Notes under the pieces: model-generated
What the model was told of the DNA's origin: nothing
Database searches by the model: none
What the model saw: only the letters and a program-made list of their open reading frames with translations
Shown here: piece by piece, positions 52,246 through 64,000 of the stretch
How the letters are laid out: every line of letters begins with the position of its first letter
How positions within the stretch are numbered: the first letter of the stretch is position 1
Assembly: GCA_946497955.1 (NCBI GenBank)
Contig: CAMMMH010000001.1
Location: 5,147 to 69,146 of the forward strand
Direction: 5' to 3'
DNA: 64,000 bases
From: an uncultured Mycoplasmatota bacterium
GTDB lineage: Bacteria; Bacillota_I; Bacilli_A; RF39; UBA660
Translations under genes and position numbers: made by a program

Positions 52246-52791
52246 TTAACTAATAAAATATTCTTCATATATTTTATTATATCTATCTAATAATTTATTA
52301 TTTAATTTTCTAGAATTAAATAAATCTTTAAGTTCTGTATAATACCATTTTAATTGTTCATAATTATCACACTCTGTAATTAAAAACTCTTTACCTAACT
52401 TTAAATACATATTATAATCTGATATTAAGTTTTGTAATTTATCAGCTAGTTCTACTGTAAGAATATTATCATCAACGTTCTTCAAGTTATTAATAAATTT
52501 AGTTTTTCTTTTTATATAATCATCTATACTTTTATCTTCACTTAAAGATAAGACTCCATCAGCTATTTTTTTATCAAAACGTTCTAATATATCATTATAA
52601 TCATATTTAGTATCCTCAATTACATCGTGAAGATAACCAATACATATAGTATCTTCATCACAACCTATATTTTTTAGCATATTCCCAACCATAATACTAT
52701 GAAAAGATAAATCAATATCTTCTTTTATCCTTTTCATTCCTTTAAATGCCAAAAATACAAAGTGTATTACTTCTTCCTCTTTTGTATACAT
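52246..52791 (-). CDS. HD-domain hydrolase (RelA/SpoT-hydrolase-like small HD protein)
   Basis: H...YLHDVIEDT HD motif. Confidence 0.55.
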   Translation of the reverse strand: MYTKEEEVIHFVFLAFKGMKRIKEDIDLSFHSIMVGNMLKNIGCDEDTICIGYLHDVIEDTKYDYNDILERFDKKIADGVLSLSEDKSIDDYIKRKTKFINNLKNVDDNILTVELADKLQNLISDYNMYLKLGKEFLITECDNYEQLKWYYTELKDLFNSRKLNNKLLDRYNKIYEEYFIS

Positions 52792-52811
52792 AACTTCACC
52801 TTTACTTTCAT

Positions 52812-53162
52812 TTACTTATCATTAATTAGCTCAAAACAAATACCTATTAGTTTATGAGTATCTACTTCTTCTTTTCCAAATATATTATATAAAGTATCAA
52901 GAGCATTTTCTTTATTATGTACTTTTGTAGCCATTTTTAAATCAAACTTTTCTAAAAAATCATTAACATTCTCATACATTATTAAGTTTTTTACTTTTAC
53001 TAATACATATTTATTCTCATTATTCACTGACTTAAATTTTATTATATCGCCAATTCTAATTTTACTAGATTTTTCATTATATAATCTTACTTCTATATTT
53101 TTAGTTTTATTTTTCATTGCTTCAAGTACTTCATCATAAACTTTATATTCAAAATCAAACAT
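52812..53162 (-). CDS. ASCH/PUA-like small protein
   Basis: ...IEVRLYNEKSSKIRIGDIIKF... ASCH-like signature. Confidence 0.45.
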   Translation of the reverse strand: MFDFEYKVYDEVLEAMKNKTKNIEVRLYNEKSSKIRIGDIIKFKSVNNENKYVLVKVKNLIMYENVNDFLEKFDLKMATKVHNKENALDTLYNIFGKEEVDTHKLIGICFELINDK

Positions 53163-53238: not shown

Positions 53239-53706
53239 CTATTTACTTTCTTTTAACATTTTTTCCACTAAACTATCTATATTAGCAAAGAATAAATTAG
53301 TTCCTCTCTTTTTCAAACCTAACATATTTTTAAACATACTTTTGATTTCTGTTTGTAAATCAGTAGAAACCTTTAAAGGTACTCCATCAACAGTATGTAC
53401 ATGGTCAATATATTTTTCTATAGTAGGAAAAGCATTTTGCAATAAAATAGCAGAATCTCTACCAGCAATTTTTCTAATTATTATCGTATTACAAAAACCA
53501 TATTTTTTTATTTTCTTATCAATTATTTTTTGATACTTTTTCACTTTAGAACTTATAGGAATAAACCATAGTATATCTTTATCTTTAATTGTAAAATATG
53601 TTGGTCGTTTCTTTCCTCTTTCATGATTTTGCATCAAATTTTCATCATTAACAACATCAAAGTATTCATCTTTAATATGATATAAATATCCAGTTTTAAC
53701 TTTCAT
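53239..53706 (-). CDS. type III toxin-antitoxin toxin, ToxN/AbiQ family endoribonuclease
   Basis: YLYHIKDEYF...VVNDEN...KKRPTYFTI...FIPISSKVKKYQ matches the ToxN/AbiQ pattern (Y.I..Y...L..D..V..N...RPY...Y.PLSS.K.K.Q). Likely start is the ATG at 53706 behind a GGGGTG RBS; the tracked start 53790 lies in the leader. Confidence 0.65.
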   Translation of the reverse strand: MKVKTGYLYHIKDEYFDVVNDENLMQNHERGKKRPTYFTIKDKDILWFIPISSKVKKYQKIIDKKIKKYGFCNTIIIRKIAGRDSAILLQNAFPTIEKYIDHVHTVDGVPLKVSTDLQTEIKSMFKNMLGLKKRGTNLFFANIDSLVEKMLKESK

Positions 53707-53820
53707 TTTACAAACACCCCCAAACAACAAATATGACATGTAATTTAAATATACTAAATTATACTTATGTTCGTCAATATATAAATTCATTTTTTAACAA
53801 TTTAATATACAAAACAAAAA

Positions 53821-53840
53821 CTTCACCATAAATGATGAAG
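53821..53840 (-). terminator. hairpin terminator between the antitoxin repeats and the toxin gene
   Basis: cttcaccataaatgatgaag near-palindrome followed on the minus strand by TTTTTGTTTTG; an identical hairpin recurs at 54058-54077. Confidence 0.6.
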
Positions 53841-53856
53841 TTTTTAACATTTTCAA

Positions 53857-53949
53857 CCAGGATCATTTATTAGTCGCACCACCTGGAAGCGAAAAACATT
53901 GTCGACTGGAATCATTTATTAATCGCACCATCCAGAAGCGAAAAACATT
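53857..53949 (-). ncRNA. type III antitoxin RNA: two tandem 44-nt repeats (period 49 nt)
   Basis: R1 ccaggATCATTTATTAgTCGCACCAcctggAAGCGAAAAACATT and R2 ctggaATCATTTATTAaTCGCACCAtccagAAGCGAAAAACATT. The 5-nt inverted pairs differ between copies but stay complementary (ccagg/cctgg versus ctgga/tccag). The repeats sit between a promoter and a terminator directly upstream of the toxN-like gene. Confidence 0.65.
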
Positions 53950-53979
53950 TCCATGATGAGCAATCTCATCTGTGATATA

Positions 53980-54008
53980 AATATACTATCTTTTTCTAAA
54001 AATGTCAA
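53980..54008 (-). promoter_or_regulatory. sigma-A type promoter driving the antitoxin-toxin transcript
   Basis: Minus-strand TTGACA (54008-54003), 17-nt spacer, TATATT (53985-53980). Confidence 0.55.
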
Positions 54009-54057
54009 CTAGTATATAATAATAGTATATACATATCTTAAAAAAATATAATAAAAA

Positions 54058-54077
54058 CTTCACCATAAATGATGAAG
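54058..54077 (-). terminator. terminator of the upstream gene (second copy of the same hairpin)
   Basis: cttcaccataaatgatgaag followed by a T-run on the minus strand, directly after the stop at 54096. Confidence 0.55.
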
Positions 54078-54095
54078 CTTATAGTTCAAAAAAAT

Positions 54096-54896
54096 CTAAT
54101 TATTCTTTTTCTTTTTTATTAAAGTTGGTCCTTCTTCATGAAAAGCTTCAGTTACTTCTTGTCCATTTAATAGTTCTTCTTTAAATTTCTCTAAAGCTTG
54201 CTTCTGCTCACTAATATCTAATTCTGATAAAGATGAAGGCTTACTTTCTTCTTTTTTCTCTATATGTAAATTACTGTCACTCTTTAAAGCTTTTATAAAC
54301 TCTTCTTCACCACCATATTGTTCTACACCACTAGTTACAAATTCCTTCCAAGAATCCATTACTATCTTTTTTTGCTCTTCTTCAGTTAATCTAGATAATG
54401 TACCTGTCGCCTTTAATACAGTAACATCATCATAAGTATCATTAAATTTATAAAAAATCTTTCCTTTTTCATTCTTATTTTTTATCACAAAAGTATGAAC
54501 ATCTTTCTTTTTACTCTCTGATTTAATTTGAATTTTGATAGCATTAAGACCAGTAGGCTCTTTTAAATACTCTTTTTTCTCTTCATCAGTCATTTCTTCT
54601 AAAACACCAGCTACATCTAATTGACTTAAAAACATTGGTCTAGCATTATTATACTTATTTACTTCATCTAATACATAGAAAATATTATATACTATAACTA
54701 ACAATGAAATAAGAGTTTTCTTTGAAGAATCAGGGTTAAAGTGTTCAGACAATTCATTTACTCTCTTTAAATCACACTTATATCCTGCATCGGCAATATC
54801 TTTAAAAACTCTTAATGTATATGATATTTGTATACCAAAACTTGCTACTACAGTTCCTAACCAACATATAATTAAAGCTTCCATATTAATTATCAT
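54096..54896 (-). CDS. membrane-anchored hypothetical protein
   Basis: N-terminal TM, charged coiled-coil C-terminus. Confidence 0.4.
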   Translation of the reverse strand: MIINMEALIICWLGTVVASFGIQISYTLRVFKDIADAGYKCDLKRVNELSEHFNPDSSKKTLISLLVIVYNIFYVLDEVNKYNNARPMFLSQLDVAGVLEEMTDEEKKEYLKEPTGLNAIKIQIKSESKKKDVHTFVIKNKNEKGKIFYKFNDTYDDVTVLKATGTLSRLTEEEQKKIVMDSWKEFVTSGVEQYGGEEEFIKALKSDSNLHIEKKEESKPSSLSELDISEQKQALEKFKEELLNGQEVTEAFHEEGPTLIKKKKNN

Positions 54897-57034: not shown

Positions 57035-58348
57035 TTATTTCTTTAATATATATGATACATTTCTACCACTATTAATTCTAACCAAAATTTCGTCATCCAC
57101 CATCTTATTCAAAATATTATTAGCTCTCGTTTTAGATATATTTAGTAAAGCTTCTACAATTTTACGATTAACTTTTTCATTTTTCTTTAGATATTCAATA
57201 ATTTGTTCTTCTTGTGTTAAATTTGAAGGTAACTTTTTTACACTATTTTCATCTATATGATTAACATTATATAAAACTACCTTAAATGTATTTTCGGTAT
57301 TTAATAATAATGGTTTCTTATCATAATTTTCATATGATTCAAATATCCTTTCTATTCCTGTACCAAAGCTTTCAACATATTTTAATCTATAAAAAACATT
57401 AGCTAAATTTGGATTACGAGACTCAGATACACCATAATATAAGTCCTCCATATTTAACCCCTTAACTAATCCTCCTAAAGAAGTAATTTCAAAGTGATCA
57501 TCAAATAATGATATTAATATACTGCCTGTAAAATTATAATCTCTATGTATAATAGCATTCAATAACGCTTCTCTAAGTGCATATTCTGGATAGTCTCTTG
57601 TATCAACCCTCTCAAGTCCTACAATTTTTCCTTTAATTCTATTAAATAGATTTAAATATTCAAAAGCTTCATTGGCTTGCTTTAAAACTGAGCCAGTAAA
57701 TTCTTTTCTATCTTTAAATTCAAGCTTATTTTTACCATTAAAAATTGCACATTTTATTGAATATGGACATTCATCTGATAAAAGCAATCCTAAATTAGTA
57801 TATCTATTATTTAAATCAATAATATTTAATGCTTTAAATTTATTATCATTAATTTCTAAATTATGTTGTTTAAAAAGACCTTTTAAATAATCAAAATGAA
57901 GATTTTGTTCTTTTGAAATATTGCTTTCAAAAGAATTACTATTGCTTTCTACTAGCATTTTTTTTATAACTTCCTCACTTGCTTGTACAGATACATTTCC
58001 ATGTCTTAAATAAACGCCTGAAGATTTTAATCCTTTATCAGATAAATAATAAGGTTTATTAGGTGCCTCACTAACTTTAACTATAATTATATCTTTATTA
58101 TTAACTTTTTCAATATAAATTTTAGTATAAAGAGTTAAATCGGATTTAATTCCTTCTCTTATCATACCGCTTAAAGCCTCTAAATCTTTTTCAGCATCTG
58201 TTAAACCTACAATCTTTCCATCATCATCAATACCAATATAAATAGTACCATCATTTGTATTGGCAAAGGCAACGATTTCTTTCTTTATATCTTTTGTAAG
58301 CTCAACTTTTAATTCTGTTTTTTGATCTTCATTATACATTATCATCAC
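57035..58348 (-). CDS. AlbA_2 (Schlafen-like) and HATPase_c_4 domain putative transcriptional regulator
   Basis: N-terminal ELKVELTKDIKKEIVAFANTNDGTIYIGIDDDGKIVGL (AlbA_2) and NAIIHRDY (HATPase_c_4) followed by a C-terminal wHTH. Confidence 0.65.
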   Translation of the reverse strand: MMIMYNEDQKTELKVELTKDIKKEIVAFANTNDGTIYIGIDDDGKIVGLTDAEKDLEALSGMIREGIKSDLTLYTKIYIEKVNNKDIIIVKVSEAPNKPYYLSDKGLKSSGVYLRHGNVSVQASEEVIKKMLVESNSNSFESNISKEQNLHFDYLKGLFKQHNLEINDNKFKALNIIDLNNRYTNLGLLLSDECPYSIKCAIFNGKNKLEFKDRKEFTGSVLKQANEAFEYLNLFNRIKGKIVGLERVDTRDYPEYALREALLNAIIHRDYNFTGSILISLFDDHFEITSLGGLVKGLNMEDLYYGVSESRNPNLANVFYRLKYVESFGTGIERIFESYENYDKKPLLLNTENTFKVVLYNVNHIDENSVKKLPSNLTQEEQIIEYLKKNEKVNRKIVEALLNISKTRANNILNKMVDDEILVRINSGRNVSYILKK

Positions 58349-58390
58349 CTAACATTATTATATACAAAGTTTAAAACATTATCAACTCTT

Positions 58391-58434
58391 TCGACCACTT
58401 TTCGACCACTTTTCGACCACTTTTCAGCAACTTT
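58391..58434. repeat. three perfect and one degenerate 11-bp tandem repeats (tcgaccacttt) in the promoter region of the AlbA_2 gene
   Basis: Directly visible; 11-bp periodicity is iteron-like. Confidence 0.85.
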
Positions 58435-58576
58435 TATCATAAAGACTAAAAATTAAATAAACAAGCTAGACGCATCCAACTTGCTCAGATAGAATCCAAA
58501 GATACACCATCGTCATTCATTTGTAATTATACTATAGCTAGTAAAATCATACAATAAGTTGATTAACTTTTTATAA

Positions 58577-60313
58577 CTACTCCTTTTTTTTAACCTTTGC
58601 TTCATCTTGACCTAAAATATTTACTTCAAACGAATCTAATTGATTAGGATTTTCTGCAACAGCCATTGCAACATCTCTAAGCATTATTGTAATAACCCCT
58701 TTTCCTTGCACATTCATATTTGTCCTAGCATTTATCATCACATTTTGCAAAAATGGTAAACAAACTTTTAAAGCATCGCTAACAGGATTTTCTGAATTAT
58801 TATTTTTAAAATAACCACATGCATTATTAAGCATAGCCGGAGAATAATATAATAAAATAGCTGGCATATCATTATATCCACTTTGATTAAACTCATAAAT
58901 TAATGTTTTATATTGCTCCATATTACCCAATATTTCATTCTCGACTGTTTGAATATCATTTTGATTATTTAAGCGCAACATTAAACATAATCTTGTAATT
59001 GTTTTCCTAACATTTTTATCTTGAGCAGTTAAACTCATTTTATTGGCTTTATAGGTTAAAAATTCGTCAAATATTTTTGTAGAATCCTCACATGTAGATA
59101 ATATTCTTGATGCTGTCATAAAATTATCAGCAGTAGGTTGATTTAAGATAACACTTCCATTTTGATTATTGATATGACCTAAAACACCACCAATATCTAG
59201 CATTGCTTCCGCAGACATTAGAACTTTTTCAAATGTCGTTAAGCTTTGTATTTTATTAAAACTATAATCTACACATTCTCCTTGAATAAATTGTCCAAGA
59301 TTAATACCATTGTTTAATACGTTTATTAGACTACTTGTACTTTCTTTGCTAAAGTTATTTAGTGATGGAAGCATATTGTATTGCAATAAATAATTTAAAA
59401 TTAAATCATGATCTACTGTTTCTATACCTTGACTTTTTATTGCATCCACCATTCTTTGACTTTTACCTAAGTCATTTATTACAACATAATATAATAATAA
59501 ATTTTCTTTTTCAGGTGTATCAAAATTACTTAAAATAAACTCTCTGATTTCATTAAATGTTTCTCTTGATAATTTATTATCTCCAACCTGTTGCTCTACA
59601 AATTTATCATACCTGTTATCTTTGATATAAAAATATAATAAAACACTAAGTATAGTTCTATCAAATTCTTTTAATTGATTAGGTTCCGCATTTTTAAAGA
59701 ATAGTTTACCATAAGTTAAATCACTGTTATCTACCCCAAAACTTTCTGGAGTAAATTCTACATCTCCAGTAAGTAAAGTTATTTCTGGATATGTTTTTAT
59801 TATATTAGCTATTATATTTAATTCATAACTATCAATATCTGCTATATTTTTATTTTTGTCAACTTGTTTTAATGCCACTTTCAATAATTCTTCTAGATTA
59901 TTTATTGGCTTATTACCGGTTTCTGTTTGATATAGCCAATCTAAATATCTATTTTTCTCAGAATTATCAGGCCTTCCATATATAACTTTATTACTATTCT
60001 TGGCTATCCAATAACCATATTCAACGTTAGTAGTAAATGCTGGTAATTGAGAAGAACGTGGAATCCAAAAAACAATTATATTAGCATTATATAATGCCTC
60101 TCTTTCCCACCAAACTTGATTATCATAGTTAAATGTTCTGTCATCATCTTCTAACTCAGGTACATAAACTATCCCATCAAACCCTAAATCTTTTAAGATT
60201 TTAACTGCTTCTTTTCTCCATGTTTTAACATCTAAACTTCGAGGAGTAGGTCCTGCTAAAAAAATTGATTTTTTTCCCTTTAATACAGGGCTATCTGAAT
60301 AATTAATTATCAT
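58577..60313 (-). CDS. large protein with N-terminal nucleoside 2-deoxyribosyltransferase-like (SLOG-superfamily) domain fused to a ~440-aa domain of unknown function
   Basis: KKSIFLAGP...ANIIVFWIP...TNVEYGYWIAK..NKVIYG matches the NDT/Rcl-like Rossmann fold, including a catalytic-type Glu. No motif was found in the remainder. GGAGGTG RBS. Confidence 0.5.
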   Translation of the reverse strand: MIINYSDSPVLKGKKSIFLAGPTPRSLDVKTWRKEAVKILKDLGFDGIVYVPELEDDDRTFNYDNQVWWEREALYNANIIVFWIPRSSQLPAFTTNVEYGYWIAKNSNKVIYGRPDNSEKNRYLDWLYQTETGNKPINNLEELLKVALKQVDKNKNIADIDSYELNIIANIIKTYPEITLLTGDVEFTPESFGVDNSDLTYGKLFFKNAEPNQLKEFDRTILSVLLYFYIKDNRYDKFVEQQVGDNKLSRETFNEIREFILSNFDTPEKENLLLYYVVINDLGKSQRMVDAIKSQGIETVDHDLILNYLLQYNMLPSLNNFSKESTSSLINVLNNGINLGQFIQGECVDYSFNKIQSLTTFEKVLMSAEAMLDIGGVLGHINNQNGSVILNQPTADNFMTASRILSTCEDSTKIFDEFLTYKANKMSLTAQDKNVRKTITRLCLMLRLNNQNDIQTVENEILGNMEQYKTLIYEFNQSGYNDMPAILLYYSPAMLNNACGYFKNNNSENPVSDALKVCLPFLQNVMINARTNMNVQGKGVITIMLRDVAMAVAENPNQLDSFEVNILGQDEAKVKKKE

Positions 60314-62297: not shown

Positions 62298-63623
62298 CTA
62301 ATCTTTTAAGAAATCATTCTTCTCTTGTTTTAATCTTTTCTTTATTTCTCTTTTAGTCTTTCTTTTACTACTATTCTTAGTATGTAATGCGATTAAGAAA
62401 ATTATTAATAATAAAACTATTAAACAAGTAAGACCAACTATTATATATGAATTAATCTTTAACTCATCATTTAGGCTCTCTACTTCTTCAGTATAATATC
62501 TTTGGATACTCTTATCAACACTATCATATAAATATAAACCTTTCTTACCTGTTTCAACATTCTCGCCATAGACTAAATAATATTTAGATTTTTTATTTAA
62601 TTTATAGACAGTATATTTTTCTCCATCTATAGTAACGGTATATTTCTTATAATTAGCAGGATATTTTCCCTTATCTAAAAGATGAATTGTAAGGTTTCCA
62701 CCACTTAACTCTTGGTATAAAGAATATTTTCCATCATCATAAGTATAAAACTTAATATTACCTTTATCATCTTTTAAAGCGACTAAAGTAAGGTCTAAGG
62801 CTTCTATTTTATAAGCAGGAACTTCTTCATCATTTATTTTAACAGTAGTCTCTACATAATAATCTTTAACTAAGTCTTTTAACTCATCACTTTTTCTAAC
62901 TACACTTAAATCTTCTTTATCTACTTTTACATTAATAGGGTCTTTTTCTTTAACATTAACAACTATTGTATAAGTCTTAGTAGAACCATTTTCAGCTTCT
63001 ACCACCACATTTATAGTATTAGCACCTTCTCCTACTTCTATATCACCAATACCACTAACTCTGGCCTTACTATCATTTGCCGTCGCTTTAACATTAACAC
63101 TAGTAGTATCACTATCTACTTCTACTTTATAATTAGTAGTATTTTTATTAAACTCTGGACTGAGTGTATAACCTTCTACTTCTAGACTAGCAAGATTATT
63201 GTCACTACTATAGTTTTTCTCTACTTCCCCACGACTAATTAAATTAATTGTTGTACTATCAGTTGGACTAGTAACTACTTCATTCCAAGAAGCGATAGCG
63301 GTATTAACAACAGATATAGTAGTAGAACCAGTACCTTTAACTCTAAAAGTATAAGTATAACTTTGACTAGTTTGTCCTTCTCTATCTACATAACCAACGA
63401 CATGAGTATTACCACTTAAAAGTTGTAGTTTACTACTATCATAATCTAGACTATATTCCCAACTACCTAGTCCACTCGCTTCACTTATAGTAACTCCTAC
63501 TGTAATATTACCTCCAACTGTCCCCGTTGATGTTGTCCCTGCTACTGAAATGGAAGCAGCATCAACAACAGATGGGCAAAAGAAAAGGAAGCTAAGTCCT
63601 AATATAAATAATATTTTCTTCAT
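62298..63623 (-). CDS. cell-surface protein with N-terminal cohesin-like domain, cadherin-like beta-sandwich domain and C-terminal membrane anchor
   Basis: Signal peptide; SWEYSLDYDSSKLQLLSG cohesin-type signature; LASLEVEGYTLSPEFNKNTTNYKVEV cadherin-like motif; C-terminal TM plus basic tail. Confidence 0.55.
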   Translation of the reverse strand: MKKILFILGLSFLFFCPSVVDAASISVAGTTSTGTVGGNITVGVTISEASGLGSWEYSLDYDSSKLQLLSGNTHVVGYVDREGQTSQSYTYTFRVKGTGSTTISVVNTAIASWNEVVTSPTDSTTINLISRGEVEKNYSSDNNLASLEVEGYTLSPEFNKNTTNYKVEVDSDTTSVNVKATANDSKARVSGIGDIEVGEGANTINVVVEAENGSTKTYTIVVNVKEKDPINVKVDKEDLSVVRKSDELKDLVKDYYVETTVKINDEEVPAYKIEALDLTLVALKDDKGNIKFYTYDDGKYSLYQELSGGNLTIHLLDKGKYPANYKKYTVTIDGEKYTVYKLNKKSKYYLVYGENVETGKKGLYLYDSVDKSIQRYYTEEVESLNDELKINSYIIVGLTCLIVLLLIIFLIALHTKNSSKRKTKREIKKRLKQEKNDFLKD

Positions 63624-63629
63624 AAAGCA

Positions 63630-64000
63630 TCATCCCTGTTCTATAACATTATTTCCTAGTAATTGTTTTTGAACTCTTAATAAGTCAACAACATCAATCT
63701 TACCATCTCTATTAGTATCACTAGCTTTTTTATCATAAGTAGATAGACTACTACTTCCTAAAATATCTTTTTGTACTCTAAGTAAATCAAGAATACTAAC
63801 TTTACCATCACCATTATTATCACCATAGATAACTACTTTATAAGACTTCGTAGTAGAACCATTAGTAATTACTAAAGTATCCCCTGTACCAACATTACCA
63901 CTAGCTTTATTTCCATATCTATCTAAATAACTAGTAACTTTCAAATTAGCATTAACACTACTTAACTTACTATTAATTACATCAACATTAGTATTAAAGG
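63630..64000 (-). CDS. dockerin-containing protein, C-terminal part (gene continues beyond window end)
   Basis: Two dockerin type-I Ca-binding repeats (YGDNNGDGKVSILDLLRVQK / DTNRDGKIDVVDLLRVQK). Frame is open to the window edge upstream of the TTG at 63944. Confidence 0.65.
   Translation of the reverse strand, partial: FNTNVDVINSKLSSVNANLKVTSYLDRYGNKASGNVGTGDTLVITNGSTTKSYKVVIYGDNNGDGKVSILDLLRVQKDILGSSSLSTYDKKASDTNRDGKIDVVDLLRVQKQLLGNNVIEQG

Follow-up and report, generated by a model that had tools for sequence, protein, structure and literature searches.

The stretch of DNA that we analyzed, referred to here as the window, is 64,000 nucleotides long and carries on its minus strand a compact cassette made up, in order, of a promoter, a 5′ hairpin, two 49-nt repeats, the first 6 nt of a third unit, a terminator, and a toxin open reading frame (ORF). 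An initial annotation made from the sequence had proposed a type III toxin-antitoxin architecture for this region, correctly in our view, and all of the elements that it listed are present on the minus strand. In type III systems generally, the repeat RNA binds a toxic protein directly and so neutralizes it, and the toxin in turn processes the repeats. Here, as in other type III loci, tandem direct repeats in the orientation of the toxin gene directly precede it, and, as far as consensus matches go, a promoter lies upstream of the repeats and a rho-independent terminator lies before the toxin gene. We found no second such locus within the window, where the cassette is present as a single copy.

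The ORF called mechanically at the toxin position extends from 53239 to 53790 and would encode 183 amino acids. The real start codon is almost certainly the ATG at 53706, giving a cptN gene (positions 53239 to 53706, minus strand) whose 155-aa product begins MKVKTGY and which NCBIfam, PDB, and fold comparisons predict to be an endoribonuclease of the CptN family. This ATG is preceded by a Shine-Dalgarno sequence, GGGGGUG, at 53721 to 53715. Moreover, most homologues are 155 aa long and their alignments begin at residue 1, the protein read from this position covers the NCBIfam profile in full, and most relatives lack the upstream extension. We therefore rejected the 183-aa ORF starting at 53790.

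A search of NCBIfam matched the protein to the equivalog model NF047359 (“type III toxin-antitoxin system CptIN family toxin”) with an E value of 4.7e-48 and a score of 162.8 bits (cutoff, 90), the match covering positions 1 to 150 of the 150-position profile. The only other NCBIfam match was to an unrelated FAD-binding protein model and, at 14.4 bits against a cutoff of 630, fell far below significance. The sole significant sequence match in the PDB was CptN of Eubacterium rectale (4RMO_A; E = 1.1e-19; residues 5 to 138). The initial annotation had rightly placed a toxin ORF downstream of the terminator but had assigned it to the ToxN/AbiQ family and proposed an HMM search against PF13958 as a check. 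That family label did not survive the check: the Pfam scan gave no match to PF13958 (ToxN/AbiQ) even at E ≤ 1, only subthreshold noise, and the NCBIfam, PDB, and fold results all point to CptN. A PADLOC search of the toxin gave no match.

We modeled the toxin with AF2 from a 73-member alignment and obtained a pLDDT of 94.3 and a pTM of 0.89. The best PDB match found for the model by Foldseek was again 4RMO_A (CptN; TM score, 0.84; 31% identity; rmsd, 2.6), and further matches were found to AbiQ (4GLK; TM score, 0.75; 12% identity), to ToxN_Bt (4ATO; TM score, 0.70; 13% identity), and to MazF and CcdB (TM scores of about 0.4 to 0.5; 8 to 18% identity). The fold of the modeled protein is that of CptN. 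The initial annotation had made its case depend on a significant ToxN/AbiQ/MazF-fold hit; Pfam yielded no ToxN/AbiQ match, but at the level of fold AbiQ, ToxN, and MazF are all structural neighbors of the toxin. Type III families are defined by toxin sequence similarity (PMC3401426), and the window toxin is homologous in sequence to CptN.

The window protein has all of the residues that are invariant or nearly invariant in the 73-member alignment (Y9, N27, R34, P35, W47, P50, S52, K57, L88, Q90, N91, and P94). Among these, P35, K57, Q90, and P94 are family invariant, while S52, which belongs to an SS(K/R) triad, is near-invariant. The active site of E. rectale CptN is formed by a Ser51-Ser52-Arg53 triad, Asp81/Ser85, and Tyr104 (PMC4627078). 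When the two proteins were aligned, the triad corresponded to S52-S53-K54 in the window protein, with Lys54 in place of Arg53; Ser85 was kept, Tyr104 was replaced by His104, and Asp81 fell in a 1-residue gap. The family consensus likewise has SSK at the triad and H at the Tyr104 column, and on sequence comparison E. rectale may be the outlier at these active-site columns.

The family is large, comprising 2,541 clusters at 90% identity (E ≤ 1e-5) and 1,013 clusters at 50% identity (E ≤ 1e-3), and the exact toxin protein was found on 25 public contigs. For comparison, we fetched 80 loci encoding toxin relatives that are 68 to 97% identical, one of the matches being cut by a contig end. All 80 come from MAGs of uncultured low-GC gut Bacilli/“Tenericutes.” The whole cassette is conserved in about 75 of them, representing different MAG species, and nearly all relatives with sufficient upstream sequence show the same order: TTGACA-17-TAGTATATT, leader hairpin, two tandem units, terminator, and toxin gene.

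The promoter of the antitoxin RNA, P1 (54008 to 53980, minus strand), consists of TTGACA (54008 to 54003), a 17-nt spacer, and TATATT (53985 to 53980). It matches the consensus at 11 of 12 positions and is conserved in related loci, so that the TTGACA-17-TATATT promoter described previously is confirmed as a consensus match. Just 5′ of the −35 box is a conserved element (54013 to 54037, minus strand) containing two direct copies of (A/G)TATACTA, and an inverted-repeat search showed that an inverted copy of the TATACTA motif, TAGTATAT, overlaps the P1 −10 box (inverted repeat I2). The TATACTA arrangement upstream of TTGACA recurs in most related loci despite differing flanks further upstream, and it is possibly an operator or UP-like element. 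The idea that these motifs form a divergent promoter was dropped on inspection by eye, the opposite strand having no usable −35 sequence.

At the start of the transcript, the leader folds into a hairpin, GAUGAG-AUUG-CUCAUC (53970 to 53955, minus strand), that was present in both the minimum free energy (MFE) and centroid folds, as the initial annotation had anticipated. It directly precedes the first predicted processing site. Of 47 distinct leaders from related loci, 46 fold a hairpin at the same position, with widely varying stem sequences. Between the repeats and the toxin gene lies an intrinsic terminator (53815 to 53846, minus strand) with a 14-bp stem followed by a T-run, which the MFE and centroid predictions also contain. 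A scan of 1.4 kb gave two terminator-like sites against an expectation of 0.1, and a hairpin with a T-run also occurs at the terminator position in related loci. The terminator had been called bidirectional. The terminator itself stands, but its bidirectional character is particular to this copy, in which an A-run precedes the hairpin and a T-run follows it; the A-run is missing in most relatives, and the window locus has no convergent gene.

The two repeats, R1 and R2, are contiguous 49-mers that are 82% identical in the register AAUGUU.... R1 occupies 53901 to 53949 (minus strand), with a stem S1 at 53941 to 53938 paired with 53926 to 53923, a stem S2 formed by CUGGA (53935 to 53931) and UCCAG (53910 to 53906), and an A-rich loop, UAAUAAAUGAU. 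R2 occupies 53852 to 53900 (minus strand), with S1 at 53892 to 53889 paired with 53877 to 53874 and S2 formed by CCAGG (53886 to 53882) and CCUGG (53861 to 53857). The motif GGAAAUGUU precedes and leads into R1, and R2 is followed by the 6-nt third-unit start, AAUGUU (53846 to 53851, minus strand), making about 2.1 copies in all. Tandem Repeats Finder missed the 49-nt repeats, which were reported by the other repeat search. They had been described as 44-nt direct repeats with a 49-nt period; there are indeed two repeats, but they are effectively two full units of 49 nt, not 44 nt. Where related loci had enough sequence upstream of the toxin gene, 49 nt was again the best period in nearly every case, the variants being 51 nt in a subclade and 48 to 52 nt in a few loci. 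One related locus has four units, and another has three.

The units were compared in an alignment (A1) of 57 distinct repeats, drawn from the roughly 75 related loci found in MAGs of gut Bacilli. The structure tested consisted of two crossing helices, S1 pairing columns 8 to 12 with 26 to 31 and S2 pairing columns 15 to 19 with 44 to 48. Across the 57 units, 96.1% of the S1 and S2 cells were in standard pairs, 6 of the 10 pairs showed changes on both sides, and 88 cells were compensated, for example, by U-A to C-G in S1 and by C-G to U-A and G-C to A-U in S2. None of 500 shuffles reached the observed pairing or covariation score, and pairing dropped to 22 to 60% when the 3′ partner was slid by 1 to 3 columns as a control. 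In the 51-nt variant, S1 is longer by one pair, as judged by inspection of the aligned units. Because S1 and S2 cross, each unit forms an H-type pseudoknot. The initial annotation had read the compensatory substitutions in the 5-bp stem as a sign of a folded RNA; the exchange of CUGGA/UCCAG in R1 for CCAGG/CCUGG in R2 is real, and the covariation extends over dozens of loci. An Rfam search of the region at E ≤ 10 found no ToxI-like family, only chance snoRNA-like matches.

We then compared the units with the antitoxin of E. rectale, CptI_Er, whose 45-nt sequence, AAGUUUACCACUGACCGAUAUGUGGUAUAUAAAUGGUCGGGUUGA, was taken from the primer CptI-WT (PMC4627078) and agrees in numbering with that paper (G13 as L1, A27 to G35 as L2, and G44-A45 at the end). 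CptI_Er is colinear with the window units, with 23 invariant columns that include the 5′ A-GUUU, the S1 arms, the AUAAAUG of the long A-rich loop, and the 3′ UUGA. The window RNA is therefore a homologue of CptI, not a new kind of antitoxin. Its crossing, covariation-backed stems, its long A-rich loop, and its GA end at the predicted cleavage site are features of CptIN antitoxins. In the 33 cptIN loci analyzed by Blower et al. in 2012, the repeats were 40 to 48 nt long (mean, 44.8) and present in 1.9 to 3.4 copies, the toxins had a mean length of 149 aa, and all loci were chromosomal (PMC3401426). The window unit exceeds by 1 nt this 40- to 48-nt range, which describes a sample of 33 loci and is not a definition, and its copy number of about 2.1 lies within the published range.

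Toxin sequence, toxin fold, and RNA covariation together make membership in the CptIN family well supported, and the locus is very probably a complete chromosomal type III toxin-antitoxin system of that family. It resembles the CptIN system of E. rectale (4RMO; Rao et al. 2015, PMC4627078) in having a promoter, about two repeats, a terminator, and a toxin of about 155 aa, as well as an H-type pseudoknot whose elements follow one another in the same way, an AUAAAUG loop, and a UUGA end; like the cptIN family in general, it is chromosomal and belongs to the Bacillota. It differs from the E. rectale system in its 49-nt rather than 45-nt unit, which has extra bases in the 5′ tail, L1, the S2-S1 junction, and the long loop, and in its S-S-K rather than S-S-R triad and the His at the Tyr104 position. 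Other departures, from both the E. rectale system and the family, are that its repeats share only 82% identity and have a compensated S2, that a promoter-like element follows the terminator and precedes the toxin gene, and that the hosts of this lineage are low-GC uncultured gut Bacilli.

Two other type III families invite comparison. The ToxIN systems of Pectobacterium atrosepticum and Bacillus thuringiensis and the AbiQ/antiQ system of Lactococcus share the architecture of the window locus and, distantly, the toxin fold (TM scores of 0.70 to 0.75). They differ in toxin sequence, the window protein having 12 to 13% identity and no PF13958 match, and in their repeats, which are 34 to 36 nt long and present in 2.8 to 5.5 copies. 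According to the literature, their complexes are heterohexameric (3:3), whereas CptIN forms a heterotetramer. The gene order and the structural similarity to AbiQ 4GLK and ToxN_Bt 4ATO are thus what a locus of the ToxIN/AbiQ family, with a PF13958 toxin and ToxI- or antiQ-like repeats, would have in its favor, but identity is 31% to CptN, the CptIN model of NCBIfam is matched far over its cutoff, and the 49-nt repeat aligns with CptI rather than with the shorter ToxI or antiQ units. At the family level this assignment is refuted by the Pfam, NCBIfam, PDB sequence, and fold results, and we regard it as extremely improbable. TenpIN of Photorhabdus luminescens is also alike in its type III architecture and in its long repeats (39 to 57 nt; about two copies), and non-identical repeats have recently been reported for many tenpIN loci (PMC12283969); its toxin belongs to a different family, whereas the window protein matches the CptIN model.

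The initial annotation had further suggested that the 49-nt repeat marks a distinct type III family or subtype. Unit lengths of 49 nt, and of 51 nt in the subclade, do fall outside the range published for cptI, non-identical repeats are unusual for cptIN according to a 2025 survey (PMC12283969), and no Pfam, Rfam, or PADLOC model matches the locus. A fourth family is nevertheless very improbable: the toxin is a clear CptN in both sequence and fold, the RNA has the stem order, A-rich loop motif, and 3′ UUGA of CptI_Er, and the 4 additional nucleotides are small insertions in tails and loops, set against a range drawn from only 33 loci. We also considered a decayed or domesticated remnant, in which the repeats and ORF persist but no longer form a functional toxin-antitoxin pair. 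The family is known to include truncated cptN genes (PMC3401426), and fragments of 60 to 76 aa, which may be contig-end artifacts, occur in the cluster to which the protein belongs. The window ORF, however, is full length, has all of the family-invariant residues, and was modeled very confidently (pLDDT, 94.3); toxins 68 to 97% identical are intact in nearly all of the 80 loci; and on the RNA side the stems are maintained through compensatory changes and R2 is identical in 41 loci. The intact ORF, invariant residues, compensated stems, and constancy of R2 argue for purifying selection on both partners, and we consider a remnant very improbable. The locus adds a new member to a family already on record, CptIN; it is neither a ToxIN/AbiQ system nor the first of a new family.

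The two units are flanked by three GA(A/C)AAUG junctions, and 71 loci conserve the motif at each of the three. Site 1 reads GUGAAAAUGUU in most loci and GGAAAUGUU in the clade of the window, site 2 reads (G/U)CGACAAUGUU, and site 3 reads UUGAAAAUGU. In E. rectale, the unit carries a 2′,3′-cyclic phosphate on A45 and the junction is UUGA^AAG (PMC4627078). Cleavage after GA at the window junctions would release R1 as 53949 to 53902 and R2 as 53901 to 53853, and the third-unit start AAUGUU would supply the third junction, so that R2 could be cut out as well.

A second promoter-like site, P2 (53748 to 53777, minus strand), is situated past the terminator and ahead of the toxin gene. It consists of TTGACG, an 18-nt spacer, and TATATT, matching the consensus at 10 of 12 positions, and its −10 region resembles that of P1 (direct repeat D3, shared with the P1 region). 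P2 is conserved in the clade of the window and in one distant locus, L072. An extended −10 sequence, TGnTAyAyT, was present in 49 of the 79 loci counted (the window included), in nearly all cases exactly at −28 from the ATG. Given this promoter-like sequence, toxin expression may not depend solely on terminator read-through. If real, P2 would be a departure from the model of a single promoter and a leaky terminator.

Of 72 two-repeat loci, 46 keep the pairing of a CUGGA/UCCAG R1 with a CCAGG/CCUGG R2, and 41 of the 72 have exactly the R2 unit of the window. The 46 heterotypic loci contain 18 variants of R1 and 6 of R2, with mean pairwise differences of 2.14 and 0.43, respectively, so that sequence change in R1 is about five times as fast as in R2. 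The 51-nt clade has two units of almost the same sequence, and two loci, L022 and L025, combine a 51-nt R1 with the 49-nt R2. The 2025 survey found the repeats of toxIN and cptIN loci to be usually nearly identical and presented non-identical repeats as a feature of tenpIN (PMC12283969). It is conceivable, though on balance doubtful, that this cptIN subfamily uses two deliberately different antitoxin RNAs together with an uncoupled toxin promoter, P2, and not only terminator read-through. If the two-RNA reading were true, an obligatorily asymmetric CptN2-R1-R2 complex could follow, or else a division of labor in which, for example, R2 might inhibit tightly while the more labile R1 served as sensor or decoy.

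The locus is chromosomal, and its neighbors are chromosomal genes. Downstream of cptN are an ASCH-like ORF and genes for an HD_4 protein, a CmpB-like membrane protein, superoxide dismutase, an Na/Ca exchanger, and FtsK; upstream of P1 are genes for a 266-aa protein, YolD, a Y-family polymerase, a Schlafen/AlbA_2 protein, and an NDT-like/DUF6829 protein. Seven close relatives keep the order UmuC-YolD-[cptIN]-CmpB, and the 266-aa, ASCH-like, and HD genes are variably present among them. Since these three genes come and go, the cassette sits in a variable spot. No toxin relative was found in the phage collection, and the plasmid collection held only five distant ones (31 to 43% identity); with chromosomal neighbors on both sides, we rejected a phage or plasmid origin for this copy. 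The Schlafen/AlbA_2 protein, encoded 3 kb away, gave weak PADLOC matches, and the other neighbors gave none; a defense island around the locus is only weakly suggested.

RNase activity, cleavage position, stoichiometry, toxicity and rescue, and biological role are here inferred by homology only. Assays of cptIN loci in E. coli showed toxicity and its relief by the cognate RNA, and CptIN_Er was reported to stabilize a plasmid (PMC3401426, PMC4627078); none of the cptIN loci tested in E. coli gave any phage resistance (PMC3401426). By analogy, P1 would drive a short, abundant transcript comprising the 5′ hairpin, the two 49-nt CptI repeats, and the terminator, and the 155-aa CptN would be made through terminator read-through, from its own weaker promoter P2, or both. 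Each of the three GA(A/C)AAUG junctions in the precursor would then be a cleavage site for CptN, which would probably cut behind GA and leave a 2′,3′-cyclic phosphate as in E. rectale. Each freed unit would fold into an H-type pseudoknot with S1 as UCGC/GCGA, S2 as CUGGA/UCCAG or CCAGG/CCUGG, and the A-rich loop running across S1. Still bound to CptN, the units would form a closed complex with it and so obstruct its active site; this complex would be a 2:2 heterotetramer if the system is like that of E. rectale. Once synthesis of the labile RNA ceases, upon phage infection or loss of the locus, free CptN would cleave cellular or phage RNA and growth would arrest.

The locus is an ordinary, well-preserved example of CptIN with a few minor twists, and it leaves the current understanding of type III systems unchanged. 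Its main use lies in annotation, as Pfam, Rfam, and PADLOC all miss it, and it corrects a family assignment from ToxIN/AbiQ to CptIN. The approximately 75 natural RNA variants extend support for the CptI pseudoknot, through covariation, beyond a single crystal structure and offer a ready-made mutational series for structure-function work on CptI. For the family itself, one CptIN lineage proves to be very common in uncultured low-GC gut Bacilli, and non-identical repeats, recently highlighted only for tenpIN, are now documented in a cptIN lineage.

The genes flanking the type III toxin-antitoxin locus cptIN (52246-53162 and 54096-54896) encode a 266-aa protein, an HD_4 protein and an ASCH-like protein, the last being a 116-aa ORF whose Pfam matches were sub-threshold. 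All three come and go among relatives that are otherwise syntenic (UmuC-YolD-[cptIN]-CmpB), which marks the surroundings of cptIN as a small variable region. Further away, 3 to 6 kb from cptIN, a protein combining Schlafen AlbA_2 and HATPase_c_4 domains adjoins a 578-aa protein with a nucleoside 2-deoxyribosyltransferase-like domain and DUF6829 (57035-60313). PADLOC matched the Schlafen AlbA_2 protein weakly to models associated with pAgo and SIR2, and both proteins may be defence-related neighbours of cptIN. Elsewhere in the window, in a part with a GC content of about 26%, the ORFs at 62298-63944 encode a cadherin-like and a type I dockerin domain, which suggests cellulosome-type surface proteins.

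The terminator hairpin of the antitoxin (cptI) RNA, CUUCAUCAUUUAUGGUGAAG followed by a T-run at 53815-53846, recurs on the minus strand at 54055-54080, just 5' of the antitoxin RNA promoter P1, where it is the terminator of the 266-aa gene (54096-54896). The two copies form a 46-nt direct repeat, D2, that is 83% identical. We found the extra copy only where the 266-aa gene is present, namely, in the window and in the related locus L001; locus L002 cleanly lacks it. The upstream copy looks like a by-product of insertion of the 266-aa gene.

The motif (A/G)TATACTA(T) occurs three times around P1 itself: two direct copies lie 5' of the -35 box (54013-54037), and the third, inverted, overlaps the -10 box (53981-53989). 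Most related loci keep these copies despite differing flanks. Together they may form an operator, although the cptIN locus itself contains no candidate regulator.

Downstream of P1, the antitoxin repeats have varied unevenly. Among the 72 two-repeat loci, repeat 2 is identical in 41, with toxins about 80 to 97% identical, whereas repeat 1 occurs in 30 variants. Two loci (L022 and L025) pair a 51-nt repeat 1 with the 49-nt repeat 2. Both pseudoknot stems are retained in every unit of L080, which has three, and of L075, which has four quite divergent ones.

A minus-strand promoter-like element, P2 (53748-53777), lies past the antitoxin terminator and ahead of the toxin gene; it is a complete -35/-10 pair in the window's clade and in locus L072. 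More widely, an extended -10 sequence, TGnTAyAyT, precedes the toxin ATG in 49 of the 79 loci counted (window included), nearly always at -28. This sequence pattern suggests that the toxin gene has its own promoter, the putative P2. The ToxIN paradigm is a single promoter; the window locus would differ in having a putative second, toxin-proximal one.
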